This document shows positions 1 to 7,031 of a stretch of 7,031 bases of DNA, piece after piece. Every line of letters starts with the position of its first letter. Position 1 is the stretch's first letter. The notes under the pieces were generated by a model. That model did not search any database. It was not told where the DNA came from and worked only from the letters and a program-made list of their open reading frames with translations. The translations under genes were made by a program, and so were the position numbers. The DNA is from a virus (lineage: Duplodnaviria; Heunggongvirae; Uroviricota; Caudoviricetes). The stretch is from IMG/VR virus record IMGVR_UViG_2693429623_000005, positions 1-7,031 of that record, one strand, 5' to 3'.

Positions 1-138
1 TGCAGAGGCGTTCGAGCATTATAACGAATGGCATCCGCATAGTGCACTGGGTTATCGCTCGCCACGGGAATATCTACGGCAGCAAGCCAGTAATGGGTTA
101 AGTGATAACAGGTGTCTGGAAATATAGGGGCAAATCCA
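1..138 (+). mobile_element. IS2-like (IS3 family) insertion sequence, transposase-proximal terminus only; body of element lies upstream of window
   Basis: 117..138 (tggaaatataggggcaaatcca) is the exact reverse complement of 7010..7031. Sequence upstream of it encodes a transposase C-terminus. The terminal sequence matches my recollection of the IS2 right inverted repeat (one mismatch at ~105). Confidence 0.85.
2..127 (+). CDS. insD: IS3-family DDE transposase OrfB, C-terminal 41 codons (5'-partial)
   Basis: Frame 2 reads [41 protein letters not shown] then stop at 125..127. The HYN..RPHS.LGY..P.EY motif is the conserved C-terminus of IS3-family transposases. Confidence 0.8.
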
Positions 139-246
139 GCGTTCATCAGCCCCCGCATTGCCGACAGGATCACAGACGGGGGGCGCAACTGGTTGTCGTT
201 CAACTGGCCCAGCTACCGTTCTTGTATCAGAGGTGTGGCTGCATGA
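139..246 (+). pseudogene. 3' remnant (35 codons) of the gene upstream of the helicase, probably the replication initiator, truncated by the IS
   Basis: Open frame from the IS junction (139) to TGA at 244..246, which overlaps the helicase ATG (ATGA coupling). Identity as an O-like initiator is inferred from position only. Confidence 0.35.
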
Positions 247-1634
247 CAACACCAGTCTGGCGTAATGATGACCTGGAAGGCGCTGTCATTGGCGCATTCT
301 TTCTGCGTGGGGCAGATCATGAAGTGATGGATATTCTGATCACACTACCGGCGGACATTTTTTCTGTACGAGCGTATCGGGATATCTACACAGGCATCTG
401 CAGACAGGCCCGTGTTTCAGGAGTGATTGACCCCGTGCTGTTGTGTAATGAGATGCCGGAACTTGCCCCGGTGATTACTGATACCGGGCGTAAAACCTGG
501 GTGAAGTCTTCACTGGAGCACTATGTTGCAGCGTTGCGGCGCAATGCCGCACTGCGCGATGCAGAAAAAACACTGAATGAGGCGCTGCAGAAATTACGTG
601 ATGCGCATACCTGTGAAGCAGCTGAAGATGCCCTGAAGGATGCGCAGAACATGATGGTCACACTGTCGACAGGAAAGGGCGTCATTCAGCCGGTACATAT
701 TGATGATGTGCTTCCGGAAGTGGTTGAGCGTGTTGAATGCCGGAATCAGGGGCTGGAGAAATCCAGGACGTTGATGACCGGTATTGATGAACTGGACGCA
801 AAAACAGGCGGTATGGAGCCCGGAGACCTGGTATTCATTGCCGCCCGTCCTTCGATGGGGAAAACCGAACTTGCGCTGGACATCATCGACAAGGTGACTG
901 AGCAGGGGCATGGTGTGCTTCTGTTCACCATGGAGATGGCGAACATCCAGATTGGTGAACGTATGGTGTCTGCGGCTGGAGGGATGCCAGTATCACGCCT
1001 GAAATCTGTGGCTCACTTTGAAGATGAAGACTGGGCGCGTTTCTCACAAGGGGTGGGGCGGATGACCGGGCGCAATATCTGGATGGTGGACCAGGCGAAC
1101 CTGACCATTGATGAGATATGCGCAACAACGAAACACCATCTGATTAAACATCCGGAAACGGCGCTGGTGGTGGTTGATTATCTCGGGCTGATAAAAACCC
1201 GAACCACGGGGCGTCATGACCTTGCCGTGGGTGAAATCTCAAAGGGGCTTAAAGGCCTGGCAAAATCCGGTGGTTTTCCGTTGATTGCGCTGAGCCAGCT
1301 CTCCCGCGGTGTGGAGTCCAGACCCAATAAACGTCCCATGAACTCAGACCTGAAAAATTCCGGAGAAATAGAGGCGGATGCAGACATCATTCTGATGCTT
1401 TACAGGGATGAAGTGTACAACCCGGATACACAGGCTACAGGCATAGCAGAAATTAATATCACGAAACAACGTAACGGTTCTCTGGGGACGATTTACCGGC
1501 GTTTTTATAACGGACATTTTCTGCCTGTGGACCAGGAAAGCGCACAGGTTCTTTCCACCCCAATGCGGCAGCCCCAGCCGCGCAGATACAGCAATACACG
1601 TACCGACAGCAGTAAGATGGAGCGTTTCTTTTGA
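243..1634 (+). CDS. DnaB-family replicative DNA helicase (phage-encoded, P22 gp12-like), 463 aa
   Basis: Walker A ARPSMGKT, Walker B LVVVDYLGL, and SQLSRGVESRPNKRPMNSDLKNSGEIEADADIILMLYRDEVY, which closely matches the DnaB C-terminal motor. N-terminal domain LEGAVIGAFFL is DnaB-like. ATG at 243 chosen over the GTG at 102 in the ORF track, which would run into the IS end. Confidence 0.93.
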   Translation: MTTPVWRNDDLEGAVIGAFFLRGADHEVMDILITLPADIFSVRAYRDIYTGICRQARVSGVIDPVLLCNEMPELAPVITDTGRKTWVKSSLEHYVAALRRNAALRDAEKTLNEALQKLRDAHTCEAAEDALKDAQNMMVTLSTGKGVIQPVHIDDVLPEVVERVECRNQGLEKSRTLMTGIDELDAKTGGMEPGDLVFIAARPSMGKTELALDIIDKVTEQGHGVLLFTMEMANIQIGERMVSAAGGMPVSRLKSVAHFEDEDWARFSQGVGRMTGRNIWMVDQANLTIDEICATTKHHLIKHPETALVVVDYLGLIKTRTTGRHDLAVGEISKGLKGLAKSGGFPLIALSQLSRGVESRPNKRPMNSDLKNSGEIEADADIILMLYRDEVYNPDTQATGIAEINITKQRNGSLGTIYRRFYNGHFLPVDQESAQVLSTPMRQPQPRRYSNTRTDSSKMERFF

Positions 1635-1888
1635 ACAACCAGACAATGACTTTTACCTCTGAACAATTGCGTAAACACGCGCAGGAAATGTTGCGACAGG
1701 CGGAACAACTGGAAAAAACAGGTGTAACAAAAGATGCCATTCGTCGGGATATGGTGCCAGCGCTCAGGGAACTGATGCAGGCGAAACATCGCGCACAAAA
1801 AGCGGTGGATGAGCTCGTTGATTGTGTGGCAGAGCTGGAAACCAAAGTTGGAAAGTTTGAAAAAATGGTGCAGGAGGTGCTGCGCTGA
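1631..1888 (+). CDS. hypothetical small protein, predicted helical/coiled-coil (85 aa from TTG at 1631; alternative ATG at 1646 gives 80 aa)
   Basis: ORF fills the helicase-rusA gap exactly. Its TTG overlaps the helicase TGA, and its stop overlaps the rusA ATG (TGATG). Heptad-like charged sequence. No family recognised. Confidence 0.5.
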   Translation: MNNQTMTFTSEQLRKHAQEMLRQAEQLEKTGVTKDAIRRDMVPALRELMQAKHRAQKAVDELVDCVAELETKVGKFEKMVQEVLR

Positions 1889-2259
1889 TGCGCCATGAGT
1901 TTATTTTACCTTATCCGCCGACGGTGAATACTTACTGGCGACGTCGTGGCAGCACATATTTTGTATCAAAAGTTGGTGAGCGTTATCGCCGTGATGTGAC
2001 GCTAATTGTTCGCCAGCAGCGGCTGAAATTAAACCTGTCCGGAAGGCTGGCGATAAAGATTATTGCAGAGCCACCGGATAAGCGCCGTCGTGACCTGGAC
2101 AATATCCTGAAAGCACCACTGGATGCGCTGACGCATGCCGGACTACTCATAGACGACGAGCAGTTTGATGAAATCAATATTGTGCGCGGTCAGCTCGTTC
2201 CTGGTGGGCGACTGGGCGTGAAGATTTATGAAATCACAGGTGATAACGATGGCGCGTGA
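1888..2259 (+). CDS. rusA: RusA-family Holliday junction resolvase, 123 aa
   Basis: [16 protein letters not shown] ... [30 protein letters not shown] ... [11 protein letters not shown] matches the E. coli RusA pattern including the acidic catalytic residues (RRDLDN, DD). Start is coupled to the upstream stop. Confidence 0.9.
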
Positions 2260-2635
2260 TATTCAGCAGGTTATGGAACGGTGGGGGGCTTGGGCTGCAA
2301 ACACTCATGAAGATGTATCCTGGGCGTCGATCGCTGCTGGTTTTAAAGGGTTAATTCCGTCGAAAGTGAAATCACGCCCTCAGTGTTCTGATGATGATGC
2401 AATGATAATTTGTGGCTGTATGGCCCGGTTGAACAAGAAAAATCAGGATTTGCACGATTTGCTGGTGGATTATTACGTAGGTGGAATGACTTTTATGAGT
2501 CTGGCACGGAAACATGGGTGTTCGGATACCTGTATTGGCAAGCGCCTGCAGAAAGCGGAAGGGGTTATTGATGGCATGTTGATGATGCTTGATATCCGGC
2601 TGGAGATGGACAGATACGTAGAACGAATTATGTAG
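2249..2635 (+). CDS. late-gene antiterminator Q, Q933/QuuD type, 128 aa
   Basis: [17 protein letters not shown] ... [20 protein letters not shown] ... [23 protein letters not shown] matches the small Q family of Stx phages and DLP12 QuuD as I recall it. Lies directly after rusA as in DLP12. ATG at 2249 has an AGGTGA RBS 5 nt upstream; the ORF-track start at 2228 is also possible. Confidence 0.7.
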
Positions 2636-2639
2636 GTGC

Positions 2640-2669
2640 TTGACCAGACACATTGTCCGGGGCTATATT
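2640..2669 (+). promoter_or_regulatory. sigma70 promoter candidate immediately downstream of Q (PR'-like): TTGACC-18 bp-TATATT
   Basis: -35 TTGACC at 2640..2645 and -10 TATATT at 2664..2669, starting 5 bp after the Q stop. This is the position of the late promoter in lambdoid phages. Confidence 0.45.
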
Positions 2670-2730
2670 CCTCACGCGCCAGCAAAATCTGGCGTCGGGA
2701 TTGGAACCCCGGATAGAGACCGCGACAGAC

Positions 2731-2752
2731 ACACGCCGCGAGCGTGTTTTTT
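2731..2752 (+). terminator. intrinsic terminator candidate (tR'-like), about 80 nt downstream of the promoter at 2640
   Basis: Stem acacgc (2731..2736) / gcgtgt (2742..2747), loop cgcga, followed by a T-run (2748..2752) then att. Confidence 0.5.
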
Positions 2753-2880
2753 ATTGTCGTATGCACGCGCACATCTGAATTATGGTGGGGCGCATGGGGG
2801 AGCTGAAAAGCTCGCCGGTCGGTTTCCCGGTAGTTCCAACCCTGTGCGTCTCACCACCCGATGATTGGAACCTGACGGTG

Positions 2881-2909
2881 TTGACAGTTTCAGGTTTGCA
2901 GTTTACATT
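2881..2909 (+). promoter_or_regulatory. second sigma70 promoter candidate: TTGACA-17 bp-TACATT
   Basis: Perfect -35 TTGACA at 2881..2886, 17-bp spacer, -10 TACATT at 2904..2909. Confidence 0.35.
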
Positions 2910-2944
2910 TCCCCGCGGTGCTCAAAACACCTCGAAAGCGGTAT

Positions 2945-2972
2945 CCACACCCGATAGCCATGTGGTTTTTTT
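2945..2972 (+). terminator. weak intrinsic terminator candidate, about 55 nt downstream of the promoter at 2881
   Basis: 5-bp stem ccaca (2945..2949) / tgtgg (2961..2965) with an 11-nt loop, followed by seven T (2966..2972). Confidence 0.3.
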
Positions 2973-3115
2973 GTGTCCAGAATTCTTGGTTTATGACCGG
3001 GTGTGCGGCTAATACAATACCAGCAATGGAAATACGCCCGCCGACTTTCGACGGTTTTGAGCGCCCGGTCACCCTCTCAAAAGGGGTAAATCAAAATATT
3101 CGAAAGGACATGTCT

Positions 3116-3607
3116 ATGAATCGCACGTCTATTGAAAAACTCCCGTCACTTACGCATAACCATCTTCCTGTCATGACAACAGAGCTGCTGGCTGATTTGT
3201 ACGGAACAGAGCGCCAGCGTTTGACAAACAATTTCAATCGAAACAAAGAACGGTTTATAGAAGGTAAACATTTTTTCCTGATAGAAGGTGATGCGTTACG
3301 AGAGTTGAAGAACGAAAACTCTTTAAGAGTTTCTGTGAAAATTGCCCGTAACGTTCGCTCCCTCATCCTCTGGACAGAACGTGGCGCAGCCCGTCACGCC
3401 AAAATGCTCGAAACCGATCAGGCGTGGGAAGTGTTCGAAAAACTGGAAGACTGTTATTTCAACCAGAAACAGCCACCAGCGGCACAAAACACATCTATCG
3501 AAAATGATGGATGCGCATTACTGAGCCACTTCGATAAACACGGTCAGGTTGAGTTCACGGAAAAGGTACCCCGCCGATGCGATGGTATGTACTCTGGAAC
3601 GGTTTAA
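3116..3607 (+). CDS. ORF6N-domain protein (phage antirepressor-like DNA-binding protein), 163 aa
   Basis: PVMTTELLADLYGTERQRLTNNFNRNKERFIEGKHFFLIEGDALRELK ... LWTERGAARHAKMLETDQAWEVFEKLEDCYF fits the ORF6N pattern. AAAGGA RBS 7 nt before ATG 3116 (ATG 3110 also in frame). The ORF-track GTG start at 2918 is rejected. Confidence 0.7.
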   Translation: MNRTSIEKLPSLTHNHLPVMTTELLADLYGTERQRLTNNFNRNKERFIEGKHFFLIEGDALRELKNENSLRVSVKIARNVRSLILWTERGAARHAKMLETDQAWEVFEKLEDCYFNQKQPPAAQNTSIENDGCALLSHFDKHGQVEFTEKVPRRCDGMYSGTV

Positions 3608-3619
3608 ATTTTATCTGGA
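3582..3619. repeat. 38-bp perfect direct repeat R1, copy a (atggtatgtactctggaacggtttaaattttatctgga)
   Basis: Identical to 5533..5570. Overlaps the last 26 nt of the ORF6N gene. Confidence 0.9.
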
Positions 3620-3631
3620 AGGATTCTGAAG

Positions 3632-3919
3632 ATGAAAATCGAAGAATTGCGTGAAATTTTTAGTGAAAATGGCCTCTATGCTGTGCGCGTTGAGAATGGA
3701 GCGATTGTCAGCCATTGCCGCATTAGATGTTTGCAATCTCAACAAAGGAAGAGCGGTGCTGTGTTATTTTATTTTTGTAATGGACTTCTGACGGACGGTT
3801 TTATTTTGCGTGAGGACGAATTTGTCACATCATTACGGGTTTTGAAAGAGATTGGTTTTAAGGCTGGTTTTCTGCTTTTGCTGAAGAATAAACTCATCTA
3901 CAATCTTGAGCAGGATTGA
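3632..3919 (+). CDS. hypothetical protein, 95 aa, no family recognised
   Basis: ORF with an AAGGA-type RBS. No competing ORF on the minus strand. Confidence 0.55.
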   Translation: MKIEELREIFSENGLYAVRVENGAIVSHCRIRCLQSQQRKSGAVLFYFCNGLLTDGFILREDEFVTSLRVLKEIGFKAGFLLLLKNKLIYNLEQD

Positions 3920-3957
3920 ACTCCTGCTGTGTAACACCGTGCCACCGGAGAAAGCCG

Positions 3958-4557
3958 ATGGCACATATACAACTGGTCAAACAAACCTCTTCCGGATTAC
4001 TTCTCCCGGCGACGCCGGAGAGTTGCGATTTTCTGCATCAAATCAAAATAGGTGAGTGGATACACGCAGACTTTAAGCGTGTGTGTAACTACGCATTCCA
4101 CAAGCGTTTTTTCAAACTCCTGCAACTGGGTTTCGATTACTGGACTCCGGTCGGTGGGGCGATCACGCCTCGCGAACGAAAACTGGTGTCCGGTTTCGTT
4201 GATTACCTGTGTGAATCAGTAGGCCGGGAACATACGCCAGCTCTGAGCGAAGCCGCAGAGCAATATCTGAATACAGTTGCGACACGCAGAACCAGTGATA
4301 CGGCATTGCTAAAGTCGTTTGAGGCTTTCCGCGAGTGGGTAGCCATTCAGGCCGGATTTTACACCGAGCATTTTTATCCGGACGGTAGCCGTGGGTGTCG
4401 GGCGAAATCTATCGCGTTTGCGAATATGGACGAAACCGAGTTTCAGCAGGTTTATAAATCTGTTCTGAATGTGCTGTGGAACTGGATTCTGTTCCGTAAA
4501 TTTTCCTCTCCGGAACAAGTCGAAAATGTGGCCGCGCAGCTGCTGGAGTTTGCGTAA
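3958..4557 (+). CDS. lambdoid nin-region-type protein, DUF1367-like (about 200 aa), function unknown
   Basis: ATG 3958 with GGAG RBS (ORF-track TTG at 3916 possible). Stop TAA overlaps the next ATG (TAATG). Size and sequence fit my recollection of the DUF1367 family that sits next to YbcO-like genes; the family name is recalled, not searched. Confidence 0.65.
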   Translation: MAHIQLVKQTSSGLLLPATPESCDFLHQIKIGEWIHADFKRVCNYAFHKRFFKLLQLGFDYWTPVGGAITPRERKLVSGFVDYLCESVGREHTPALSEAAEQYLNTVATRRTSDTALLKSFEAFREWVAIQAGFYTEHFYPDGSRGCRAKSIAFANMDETEFQQVYKSVLNVLWNWILFRKFSSPEQVENVAAQLLEFA

Positions 4558-4847
4558 TGGTGGATTTACGTAAAGCGGCGCGGGGGCAGATGTGCACCGT
4601 CAGAATTCCTGGCTACTGCAATCACGATCCGGAAACGTCTGTGCTGGCGCATTACCGACTGGCGGGAACGTGCGGAACAGCGATAAAGCCACACGATATG
4701 CAGGCAGCGATTGCCTGTAGCTCGTGCCACGATTTAATCGACGGGCGGGTAAAAACCAGCGATTACACCAAAGAAGAATTACGCCTGATGCATGCAGAAG
4801 GTGTTTTTCGCACACAAGAAATCTGGAGAAAGGAGGGATATTTATGA
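4557..4847 (+). CDS. YbcO-like protein (DUF1364), putative Zn-binding nuclease, 96 aa
   Basis: MVDLRKAARGQMCTVRIPGYCNHDPETSVLAHYRLAGTCGTAIKP ... IACSSCHDLIDGR resembles DLP12 YbcO as I recall it, with a Cys-rich C-x7-C ... C-x2-C pattern. Coupled to neighbours on both sides. Confidence 0.7.
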   Translation: MVDLRKAARGQMCTVRIPGYCNHDPETSVLAHYRLAGTCGTAIKPHDMQAAIACSSCHDLIDGRVKTSDYTKEELRLMHAEGVFRTQEIWRKEGYL

Positions 4848-5398
4848 TTTACCCAACGAATACAGGAAAAAGCGGAGAACACCTTCGTCTCACCACGCTG
4901 GAAAGTGTCTGGATTCAGGGAAAACTACGTATGTGGGGGCGCTGGTCGTATATTGGTGGCGGTAAGACGGGGAATATGTTTAACCTGATGTTGACCTCTA
5001 AAAAGCTGACAAAAACGGCAATTAACGAGGCGCTCCGGAGGATGAAAAAAGCAGGTCTGAACAAGTCTGAACTTGAGGCTTTTTTGCGGGATATGATTAA
5101 CGGTAAGCAAAAGAGCTGGCTGGCGCATTGTACTGATGCAGAGGCGTTATGTATTGATCGGGTCATAAGTGAGGTGCTGGCAGAGCATCCAGGATTGATT
5201 AGCGTCCTTCGGCAACGGTATGAGGGGCGGGGGATGACCAAACGCAAAATGGCTGAACTGCTGAATGATGCACACCCGAAATGGAGTTTAAGAACCTGTG
5301 AAAGACGCATTGAGCATTGGCTAAAGGTGGCAGAATTTATTTTGTACAAACCAATGGTTATGGCTTTTGGTATAGAGAAAAAAGTTATTGCTTTTTGA
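4844..5398 (+). CDS. 184-aa protein with a C-terminal sigma70 region-4-like helix-turn-helix; candidate transcriptional regulator
   Basis: Strong RBS AGGAGGG (4831..4837) and ATG 4844 overlapping the upstream stop (ATGA). C-terminal VLRQRYEGRGMTKRKMAELLNDAHPKWSLRTCERRIEHWLKVAE resembles ECF-sigma/LuxR-type HTH. It is the last gene before the terminators and tRNAs, the usual place of Q. Confidence 0.65.
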   Translation: MIYPTNTGKSGEHLRLTTLESVWIQGKLRMWGRWSYIGGGKTGNMFNLMLTSKKLTKTAINEALRRMKKAGLNKSELEAFLRDMINGKQKSWLAHCTDAEALCIDRVISEVLAEHPGLISVLRQRYEGRGMTKRKMAELLNDAHPKWSLRTCERRIEHWLKVAEFILYKPMVMAFGIEKKVIAF

Positions 5399-5477
5399 CG
5401 TAAAAACTGCTTCAATTCTTGTACGCTTCGCAAAGCTGTACCGCGAGGCGAATAGCAGACATGGACATTTGAAAGAG

Positions 5478-5499
5478 CCCGCTTTATGCGGGTTTTTTT
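5478..5499 (+). terminator. intrinsic terminator T1
   Basis: Stem cccgc (5478..5482) / gcggg (5488..5492), loop tttat, then seven T (5493..5499). Lies 80 nt after the stop of the 184-aa gene. Confidence 0.6.
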
Positions 5500-5531
5500 A
5501 TACCTGAAAAACGGCACAGGACGTTAAACGT
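5488..5531. repeat. 44-bp perfect direct repeat R2, copy a (gcgggtttttttatacctgaaaaacggcacaggacgttaaacgt)
   Basis: Identical to 5721..5764. Comprises the 3' arm and T-run of a terminator plus a 32-bp tail. Confidence 0.9.
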
Positions 5532-5532
5532 A

Positions 5533-5570
5533 ATGGTATGTACTCTGGAACGGTTTAAATTTTATCTGGA
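5533..5570. repeat. R1, copy b
   Basis: Identical to 3582..3619. Begins 1 nt after the end of R2 copy a. Confidence 0.9.
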
Positions 5571-5631
5571 GCAACACGGGTGGATCGTTGCCCGTAAAGA
5601 GCAACTGGTGGAGCGGTTGATGCGGTTTTAA
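5533..5631 (+). CDS. possible 32-codon ORF starting at the ATG inside R1 copy b (MVCTLERFKFYLEQHGWIVARKEQLVERLMRF)
   Basis: Open frame only; weak RBS (AGGACG, 10-nt spacing). The same ATG in R1 copy a opens a 15-codon frame ending 2 nt before the 95-aa gene. Confidence 0.2.
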   Translation: MVCTLERFKFYLEQHGWIVARKEQLVERLMRF

Positions 5632-5706
5632 AAATTTTTTCCGAAAACTTTACGATCGTAAAAAGTTGAATATCCTGTTAAGAGTGGTTACTACGCCACA
5701 CAGCTT

Positions 5707-5732
5707 AAACCCGCCGATGAGCGGGTTTTTTT
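5707..5732 (+). terminator. intrinsic terminator T2
   Basis: 8-bp stem aaacccgc (5707..5714) / gcgggttt (5721..5728), loop cgatga, T-run 5726..5732. Confidence 0.65.
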
Positions 5733-5764
5733 ATACCTGAAAAACGGCACAGGACGTTAAACGT
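5721..5764. repeat. R2, copy b
   Basis: Identical to 5488..5531. Followed directly by GCTGGTGG (5765..5772). Confidence 0.9.
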
Positions 5765-5782
5765 GCTGGTGGTCAGATGAGT

Positions 5783-5811
5783 TTGCAGATGTGATGACAT
5801 ATGGTTATTAT
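5783..5811 (+). promoter_or_regulatory. sigma70 promoter candidate for the tRNA cluster: TTGCAG-17 bp-TATTAT
   Basis: -35 at 5783..5788, -10 at 5806..5811. Predicted start is 2 to 3 nt before the first tRNA. Confidence 0.4.
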
Positions 5812-5820
5812 TCTGCCTCC

Positions 5821-5897
5821 GGCCCTTTAGCTCAGTTGGTCAGAGCGAGCGACTCATAATCGCCAGGTCGCTGGTTCAAGTCCAGCAAGGGCCACCA
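5821..5897 (+). tRNA. tRNA with anticodon CAU, Ile2 (lysidine) type, ileZ/ileX-like; 77 nt with encoded CCA
   Basis: Cloverleaf folded by hand: acceptor ggccctt/aagggcc, D-stem gctc/gagc, anticodon loop cuCAUaa, T-loop ttcaagt. Overall close to E. coli ileX as recalled, hence Ile2 rather than Met. Confidence 0.85.
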
Positions 5898-5898
5898 A

Positions 5899-5975
5899 CC
5901 ACCACTAGCTCATCCGGATAGAGCATCAACCTTCTAAGTTGACGGTGCGAGGTTCGAGTCCTCGGTGGTGGGCCA
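5899..5975 (+). tRNA. tRNA-Arg (anticodon UCU), 77 nt with encoded CCA
   Basis: Acceptor ccaccac/gtggtgg (7 bp perfect), anticodon stem tcaac/gttga, loop cuUCUaa, T-stem cgagg/cctcg with loop ttcgagt. Confidence 0.8.
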
Positions 5976-5977
5976 GC

Positions 5978-6053
<76 letters not shown>

Positions 6054-6056
6054 TAT

Positions 6057-6131
<75 letters not shown>

Positions 6132-6745
6132 GCGAGATTTGAGACGAAGGTTGTTATTTGCACTGACACAATATTGTGTGGGAATGTCTGACTCCTTACC
6201 ATCTCCTGTTCTGTGATGTTGTTTTGTTGCAGTTCCAGTGCTCTTTTTTCAGCACCAGAATGGTGCATTGTCGGTCAGGTTACGTAGTGAACCTCTGGCA
6301 GGGGACTGATAATGCATCATTCTGGTGTTGTAAATATCTCTTCGGACAACTTACAAAATATTCTAAGCAAACCCCGGGAACACACTCTTAACTGCCTTGG
6401 CTGGCGGTTTTTTGTACAGCGCTCGGTATGTGTGAGCTGGAAATCAGATTTTGCATGGACTGGAATCATGCTGTTATTTAGGGGCGAAGAACTGGCTTTT
6501 TCTTCCGCCTTCTCACCAGTAACGATTAGAAAAATAATGAAATGCCCCCCTCCGGGGAGGAGGACCGTAGAAAAAAGGACCCGCCAGCAAAAACATTGGG
6601 GATGAACAGCTTTCGCTACTCAGATTGCTGGCGGGTAAAGTTCCTCATGAATTAAGAATGCTACGCGATCTTTTTTAATGGAAATGAAAATTATTGTCAA
6701 TTAGTCGTGCGTGTTTTTTCATACAATATTGGTAAAGGTGATTCA

Positions 6746-6776
6746 GGCCATCAGAGTTTTGCTGATGGCCTTTTTT
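6746..6776 (+). terminator. strong intrinsic terminator 36 bp upstream of the holin start
   Basis: Perfect 9-bp stem ggccatcag (6746..6754) / ctgatggcc (6762..6770), loop agttttg, T-run 6771..6776. Confidence 0.7.
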
Positions 6777-6811
6777 CTTTCCGATAGCACAGGTCTGTCG
6801 GGGGGCGGGAT

Positions 6812-7009
6812 ATGTATCAGATGGAAAAAATATCAACAGGCATTGCCTACGGCACCTCCGCCGGCAGTGCCGGCTACTGGTTTTTGCAGTGGTTGGATCA
6901 GGTCAGTCCATCACAGTGGGCTGCGATTGGTGTGCTGGGAAGTCTGCTTCTGGGGCTTCTGACTTATCTGACGAATCTGTATTTCAAAATAAGAGAAGAT
7001 AAGCGTAAG
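6812..7009 (+). CDS. S: S21-like class II pinholin with dual start (Met1/Met4); native frame interrupted after codon 66 by the IS terminus at 7010
   Basis: Translation [66 protein letters not shown], then the frame continues into IS sequence (WICPYIS) with no stop before the window end. Matches the phage 21 S21 68/71 holin as recalled. Missing from the ORF track because there is no in-window stop. Confidence 0.8.
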
Positions 7010-7031
7010 TGGATTTGCCCCTATATTTCCA
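7010..7031 (-). mobile_element. IS2-like terminus of a second copy in inverted orientation; element continues beyond the window
   Basis: tggatttgcccctatatttcca is the exact reverse complement of 117..138. Confidence 0.85.

Follow-up and report, generated by a model that had tools for sequence, protein, structure and literature searches.

A Shigella sonnei prophage holin gene of the S21 type interrupted by IS2 five codons before its stop

A stretch of Shigella sonnei prophage DNA ends a few nucleotides after a holin reading frame has passed, without a stop, into what appears to be the end of an insertion sequence. The locus raises the question of what has been inserted, whether the join is genuine, and whether the prophage has lost its capacity for lysis because of it. 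The stretch analysed, here called the window, is 7,031 nucleotides long and is the entire draft contig CXCR01000186.1 (7031 bp) of S. sonnei assembly GCA_001259815.1. Both of its ends are copies of IS2, at which short-read assemblies break, and so the contig stops there. A sequence-only reading had proposed that an S21-like pinholin gene with two starts is cut after codon 66, its C-terminal tail replaced and the following endolysin and Rz genes separated from it, probably making the prophage lysis-defective. The features at issue are these:

Positions 6812 to 7009, plus strand: codons 1-66 of an S21-type class II holin (pinholin) gene, from its translation, PF04971 and alignment with phage 21 S.
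Positions 7005 to 7009: GTAAG, the 5-bp IS2 target site (third base of codon 65 plus codon 66), from the element's flanks in the complete S. sonnei chromosome L015.
Positions 7010 to 7031, minus strand: the outer 22 nt of the IS2 right terminal inverted repeat (IRR), TGGATTTGCCCCTATATTTCCA, matching the start of the element in L015 and an inverted copy of positions 117-138.
Positions 1 to 138, plus strand: the right end of another IS2-like copy, a divergent one at 95% identity to canonical IS2, inverted with respect to the copy at 7010.

The holin frame is missing from the list of open reading frames first drawn up for the window, as had been remarked, solely because it runs off the end of the sequence. 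That it is a chance frame is ruled out by the match of its 73-residue translation to PF04971, ‘Bacteriophage P21 holin S’ (E=7.8e-35, above the gathering score, with residues 5-66 aligned to profile positions 1-62 of 64). With the holin as tblastn query, 436 phage records are matched, including the curated phage 21 genome, OL657228. The window holin is identical to the S protein of that phage (CPT_21_66/67, annotated as the S21-71 antiholin and the S21-68 pinholin made from two starts) at 60/66 positions (91%), with no difference from residue 7 to residue 45 and with Met1 and Met4 shared. The six substitutions, going from phage 21 S to the window, are K2Y, S3Q, D5E, V46L, F49L and R64K. Holins of this class have two transmembrane domains, a weakly hydrophobic TMD1 rich in Gly, Ala and Ser and a hydrophobic TMD2 that forms the pore. 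Judged from the sequence, both should be intact, as should the 8 residues with which the cytoplasmic tail begins; TMD2 differs from that of S21 by V46L and F49L only, and hydropathy peaks at residues ~31-60, with the same maximum as in S21. Intact close relatives, in E. coli and in a different S. sonnei prophage, show no difference from the window up to and including codon 66, after which they read AARGE-stop, giving 71 aa. As the intact proteins run ...EDKRK-AARGE-stop, the break falls exactly after codon 66, and the frame continues as WICPYIS to the end of the window. RefSeq has an entry for this product, WP_052983971.1, as ‘class II holin family protein, partial [Shigella sonnei]’.

The inserted element is IS2. 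All alignments to intact holin loci stop at 7009, leaving 7010-7031 outside every one of them, and these 22 nt, which encode WICPYIS in the holin frame, are the reverse complement of the right end of IS2. They recur, inverted, at 117-138, where they end the 138 nt of transposase-coding sequence with which the window begins. In L015 the same junction leads into a 1331-bp element at 12812-14142 that is 99.5% identical over 1331 bp to E. coli copies annotated as ‘IS3-like element IS2 family transposase’. The right inverted repeat adjoins the holin gene, and antisense to it are the transposase genes, orfA and orfB, whose joint product IS2 makes by programmed frameshift; in the matching loci they specify products of 121 aa and 301 aa (or a fused 409-aa product) with HTH_Tnp_1 and rve domains. 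Every complete genome that has this junction also has the element at full length, which disposes of the idea that it is a remnant.

GTAAG is present on both sides of IS2 in L015 (...GCGTAAG, then TGGATTT...CCAGTCTA, then GTAAG and GCTGCGAGAGGTGAATAATG); more fully, the left side of the junction reads GATAAGCGTAAG followed by TGGATTT, and the right side, past the element, reads CCAGTCTA followed by GTAAG and GCTGCGAGAGGTGAATAATGTCG. The window has one copy of the duplication, at 7005-7009, and the second is seen in L015. The same position of the break, the same IS end and the same orientation recur in 11 distinct loci of long S. sonnei records, 10 of them multi-megabase (L015/L026 counted once; L022-L031), and the junction is therefore real rather than the product of a chance frame. 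A search with the junction pattern, specific and then generalised, gave 0 matches in a collection of one genome per species, apparently with no S. sonnei representative among them, and nothing specific on this S. sonnei holin insertion was found in the literature. The IS2-cut holin is an ordinary allele of S. sonnei, already present in public genomes and annotated there.

What lies beyond IS2 is visible in the complete S. sonnei genomes. Past the element and the second GTAAG, L015 has the orphaned last five holin codons with their stop, an unchanged ribosome-binding region and the endolysin start (GCTGCGAGAGGTGAATAA directly after GTAAG). The endolysin gene is intact, and its product shares 93% identity with the SAR endolysin R21 over its full length, a Gly/Ala-rich SAR segment at the N terminus included; Rz (PF03245) is next. 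The order holin 5′ part, antisense IS2, lysozyme and Rz is found in every fetched locus that encodes the chimeric protein. Thus the expectations of an S21-type holin cut after codon 66 by an IS, of a far IS end, of a 5-bp target duplication and of an endolysin and Rz set apart from the holin have all been borne out, with the far end, the duplication and the endolysin observed in other S. sonnei genomes rather than in this isolate. Taken as a whole, the locus is very probably explained by simple transposition: in a decayed lambdoid S. sonnei prophage, IS2 entered the S21-type pinholin gene of the late operon at its 3′ end.

Upstream of the holin gene the window contains the following:

Positions 2249 to 2635: Q-family gene, PF06530 E=2.7e-52.
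Positions 4844 to 5398, plus strand: DUF1133 / Q-like antiterminator gene, PF06576 E=2e-107 and PF06530 E=8e-7.
Positions 5821 to 6131, plus strand: four tRNA genes (CAT, Arg-TCT, Thr-TGT, Gly-TCC) found by ARAGORN, within the late-operon leader.
Positions 6745 to 6781, plus strand: terminator-like hairpin with T-run from a consensus scan, with a 10-bp stem containing 6 GC pairs, ~30 nt 5′ of the holin start.
Positions 6800 to 6809, plus strand: G-rich stretch GGGGGGCGGG, by its position the putative Shine-Dalgarno sequence for both holin starts, aligning with the region of the annotated ribosome-binding site of phage 21 S.

The layout of the tRNA cluster is shared with phage 21, where the tRNA genes are between pR′ and S, with Stx phages and with annotated E. 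coli relatives. More broadly, the relatives share the operon grammar of phage 21: a Q-type gene, tRNAs, S, a SAR endolysin (93% to R21) and Rz/Rz1. The late regulator nearest upstream of the holin is the DUF1133 / Q-like gene. The scan gave further terminator-like hairpins in the leader, and together the hairpins suggest that the holin operon is normally read by antiterminated late transcription. The two antiterminator-type genes (2249-2635 and 4844-5398) stand in tandem 5′ of a single lysis cassette because of the mosaic structure of the window, which is taken up below. The CAT tRNA gene of the cluster is called tRNA-Met by ARAGORN, while its equivalent in RefSeq relatives is annotated tRNA-Ile; it may be an Ile tRNA that is lysidine-modified. 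Also within this region is a 50-nt direct repeat, 96% identical between its copies at 5488-5537 and 5721-5770, that is single-copy in related prophages. Copy 1 is 90 nt 3′ of DUF1133 and copy 2, ~50 nt 5′ of the tRNA cluster, overlaps a terminator-like hairpin with T-run at 5707-5728; copy 1 has the same GCGGGTTTTTTT motif.

The two starts of the holin gene merit separate consideration. In-frame ATGs are present at 6812-6814 (Met1) and 6821-6823 (Met4), and to this extent the comparison made earlier with the dual start of S21 68/71 is sound, as the positions are conserved. The likeness does not reach the residues between them. The N-terminal extension is Met-Tyr-Gln, with a net charge of 0, versus Met-Lys-Ser, with +1, in S21-71, and it is by the extra positive charge of its extension, from Lys2 of S21-71, that the antiholin form is set apart (PMC9636201). 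The window holin has no such lysine. Since MYQM defines a common, family-wide allele class that is also found intact, as in the sequenced Shigella phage Ss-VASD, its MYQ extension is not a consequence of the IS2 insertion. By position, then, a dual start is present, while its use and any antiholin logic in the MYQM allele are putative. Folding of 6790-6850 gave no significant RNA structure around the two starts (z=-0.6, with z=-0.9 for the phage 21 equivalent), and a regulatory hairpin there of the type of the lambda S sdi is thus unsupported. In the NCTC long-read assembly the G-run 5′ of the gene has five more G than in the window (GGGGGGGGGGGCGGG versus GGGGGGCGGG; 12597-12601 of L015 versus 6799-6809 of the window), and the extra five G, which fall within the presumed Shine-Dalgarno region, are probably a homopolymer error.

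Granted that the junction is certain, its linkage to the left 6 kb of the contig is uncertain. S. sonnei carries two relevant prophages. One, here the A locus, has the order helicase-RusA-Q-ORF6N and an intact holin gene; the other, the B locus, carries the holin gene with IS2, and does so in all the complete S. sonnei genomes examined. Over positions 1-3619 the window agrees with the A locus (L002-L011) at 99.97% identity and has the same left IS2 junction, and the holin of that locus is intact. From 3610 to 5531 the window agrees with the B locus (L015 and L018) at 100% identity, 5533-6265 match A again, and 6266-7031 have one difference to B and four to A. At the five sites in this last segment that distinguish the two loci (6311, 6314, 6420, 6973 and 7000) the window reads B,B,A,B,B, a pattern that suggests gene conversion or short-read collapse of two near-identical copies.

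The right end could therefore be a real junction that is unlinked to what precedes it, with ~6266-7031 derived from the B locus and merged with A either by collapse of a 744-bp near-identical repeat or by real recombination of A with B; the chance of this is substantial, though we put it somewhat short of even. Among the points in its favour is the absence from the window of an IS3-family insertion, accompanied by a 374-bp deletion, which complete genomes carry in the B locus at 5891/6266. Scored for the IS3-family insertion and for the holin IS2 respectively, L018 is +/-, L015 is +/+, the window is -/+ and L019 is -/-, and, as all four combinations exist, recombination, repeated insertion or assembly collapse is required. 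The two ends of the contig also lie in IS2, as is typical of short-read assembly, and its joins at 3619/3620 and 5531/5533 are in no other fetched locus.

The same joins provide one of the arguments on the other side. The source loci share ~10 bp or less at them, too little for k-mer collapse, and so a simple k-mer chimera is ruled out there and the mosaic is probably partly real. Furthermore, the contig runs 22 nt into IS2, unbroken at the fork that would be expected near 7000-7009, and an independent IS2 hit at a preferred site is conceivable. A perfect 38-bp direct repeat (3582-3619 and 5533-5570) is present at the joins. Between its copies the ORF6N gene is split into a 5′ part, 3116-3619, and a 3′ part, 5533-5631, by a segment of 1913 bp comprising Rem-DUF1367-YbcO-DUF1133 that a different S. 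sonnei prophage carries at 100% identity. Either templated insertion or recombination, or else an assembly artefact, is the origin of this segment. An extra C at 3569 shifts the ORF6N frame, and the frameshifted protein is unique to the window contig.

None of this touches the insertion itself, which is certain whatever it is joined to, and with simple IS2 transposition as the preferred account it can be asked whether the site is a special one. Three further IS2-type insertions at the S-R junction of related holin genes come into consideration:

L034, positions 3190 to 3200: an IS2-type insertion at the same nucleotide as in the window; the allele is 85% identical, and three of its differences are no more than 12 nt from the junction.
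L035, positions 3190 to 3200: a divergent IS2 variant, 3 nt upstream of the window site.
L038, positions 3205 to 3215: an IS2-type insertion 11 nt downstream of the window site.

The three differences near its junction show that L034 is not a recombinant copy of the window allele. Together with the S. sonnei allele this makes four separate IS2-type events in a span of 14 nt, and in all of them the IRR end faces the holin gene. The database proteins with IS insertions in this region include P0003, P0007, P0061, P0106 and P0120, and certain tails that begin at codons 59-66 we take to be ends of IS1 and of another IS3-family element. An IS2 right end is close to an S21-type holin gene in 19/5426 complete E. 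coli genomes. It may be, then, that the 3′ end of S21-type holin genes, or the S-R junction, is a preferred IS2 target and that recurrent hits are kept there because uncoupling of the lysis cassette benefits the lysogen, but we regard this as rather doubtful. Ascertainment is strong, since a protein search recovers late disruptions only and the DNA search had the query orientation only. In addition, the insertions in the 4 E. coli loci inspected are scattered within essD or rrrD (at holin codon ~45 and at rrrD nt ~93, ~141 and ~375), and scattered insertions fit neutral accumulation in ubiquitous cryptic prophages equally well. Only as a tentative suggestion, with the balance against it, can the last ~15 nt of S21-type pinholin genes be put forward as a recurrent IS2 target, where insertion leaves a pore-competent core with a basic tail, uncoupled from its SAR endolysin, and so could form a repeatable route for Shigella and E. 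coli lysogens to the disarming of prophage lysis cassettes.

The consequence first proposed for the insertion, that IS2 inactivates the holin by replacing its tail and cutting it off from endolysin and Rz, with a lysis-defective prophage as the outcome, survives less well and is unlikely. What speaks for it is plain enough: the holin ORF is cut and fused to IS sequence, S and R are split by the 1331 bp of antisense IS2 in complete genomes, and the strongly basic tail that is added could retard or block triggering. The extent of the damage to the protein is what weighs most heavily the other way. The holin ORF extends 84 nt into the right end of IS2, giving 94 aa from Met1 and 91 aa from Met4, with the native last five residues, AARGE, exchanged for 28 basic residues encoded by canonical IS2. 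It is therefore only in part that the native tail is replaced, for of its 13 residues 8, KIREDKRK, are kept and 5 are lost. From K59 on, the net charge of the tail goes from +3 to +8, with no new hydrophobic segment. The 91-aa chimera that starts at Met4, P0001, goes by the name ‘lysis protein S [Shigella sonnei]’, and longer variants, of 94 and 111 aa, begin at starts further upstream. The contig collection indexes the chimera in 234 blocks, of which 18 have a contig >1 Mb.

Losses of this size are tolerated by phage 21 S21-68. C-terminal truncations of it down to K56 still form pores, and of the truncations only that at K56, which is K59 in the 71-aa numbering, had an effect (10.1101/2021.04.20.440580, a preprint). 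When truncated S21-56 was fused C-terminally to ring-forming proteins, pores were also still formed (10.1101/2021.04.20.440580); these data are for phage 21 S21-68, all of the tested variants lacking the +5 tail. The chimera of the window keeps seven residues past K59. With its transmembrane domains and membrane-proximal basic anchor untouched, it would probably insert and form pinholes, and both its near-identity to S21 and the published C-terminal tolerance lead us to infer that the window holin can make the pinholes (~2 nm, depolarising) of its class. By analogy with lambda S, the change in tail charge from +3 to +8 would probably alter the triggering time. The pore-forming core of the chimera is likely to be intact, by analogy with S21, and any effect of the insertion on the protein is likely to concern its timing, not its function.

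The operon is likely to be affected more than the protein. S and R are 1.3 kb apart in the complete genomes, with the antisense IS2 between them, and the chimeric ORF has lost the single base that the S stop normally shares with the R start. The ribosome-binding region of R, its Shine-Dalgarno sequence included, and its start are intact past IS2, which is a further point against loss of lysis. With the coupling of S to R broken, expression of R and Rz would need read-through of the antisense IS2, which a Q-antiterminated polymerase may or may not achieve; antiterminated transcription would be expected to favour it.

There is also the question of whether lysis is what limits such a prophage. 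Independent lesions in replication and morphogenesis genes suggest that it is not. The second IS2-like copy, at the left end of the window, cuts a dnaC-like gene of which the last 108 nt remain, at 139-246; window position 139 aligns with position 2780 of L001, within an ‘ATP-binding protein’ gene, and complete S. sonnei genomes (L002-L011) have the IS2-dnaC junction too. In the window the ORF6N gene is also disrupted, and the two related prophages of complete genomes have a fragmented portal gene together with transposase genes of IS3-family, IS110-family, IS1 and IS4-family elements. Because the prophage carries other IS lesions, the holin insertion is seen as a further step of decay, one more that would be neutral or mildly beneficial, and not as the event that disabled lysis. 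That the prophage is lysis-defective because of IS2 is possible, and is neither shown nor the most economical reading.

Set against known systems, the holin of the window departs from phage 21 S in having MYQ in place of MKS, in having an IS2 tail in place of AARGE and in no longer being adjacent to R. Its closest counterparts are the class II holins that start with MYQM, such as the Ss-VASD holin, WP_000284485.1 and EssD of the DLP12 type, and those of Stx and other lambdoid phages, which have the same Pfam domain and a 71-aa architecture. Genes of the WP_000284485.1 type are identical to the window in codons 1-66, but these relatives are intact, ending in ...KAARGE with the endolysin directly after, whereas the window gene is interrupted. 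The IS2 insertions in the essD-rrrD cassette of E. coli involve the same element (IS3 family, 1331 bp) in the same orientation and in the same type of cassette, but at different sites, holin codon ~45 or inside rrrD; the S. sonnei insertion is five codons before the stop and generates a long chimeric ORF. Lambda S105/S107 likewise has two in-frame starts a few codons apart with opposing products. However, lambda S is a class I holin with three TMDs that makes large holes and is unrelated in sequence, and the Lys2 of its antiholin has no counterpart in MYQ.

The gene family, IS2 and the IS-driven decay of prophages in Shigella are all well known, and what the locus offers is in part practical. 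The chimeric ORF is fit for annotation as an IS2-disrupted holin pseudogene and not as a lysis protein, and yet loss of function is not to be assumed from a lesion of five residues. Prophage structure is not to be inferred from IS-bounded contigs that pass through sequence common to two prophages unless long reads are at hand. Should the S-R junction prove a true hot spot for IS2, it would be a small, neat case of repeatable prophage domestication.
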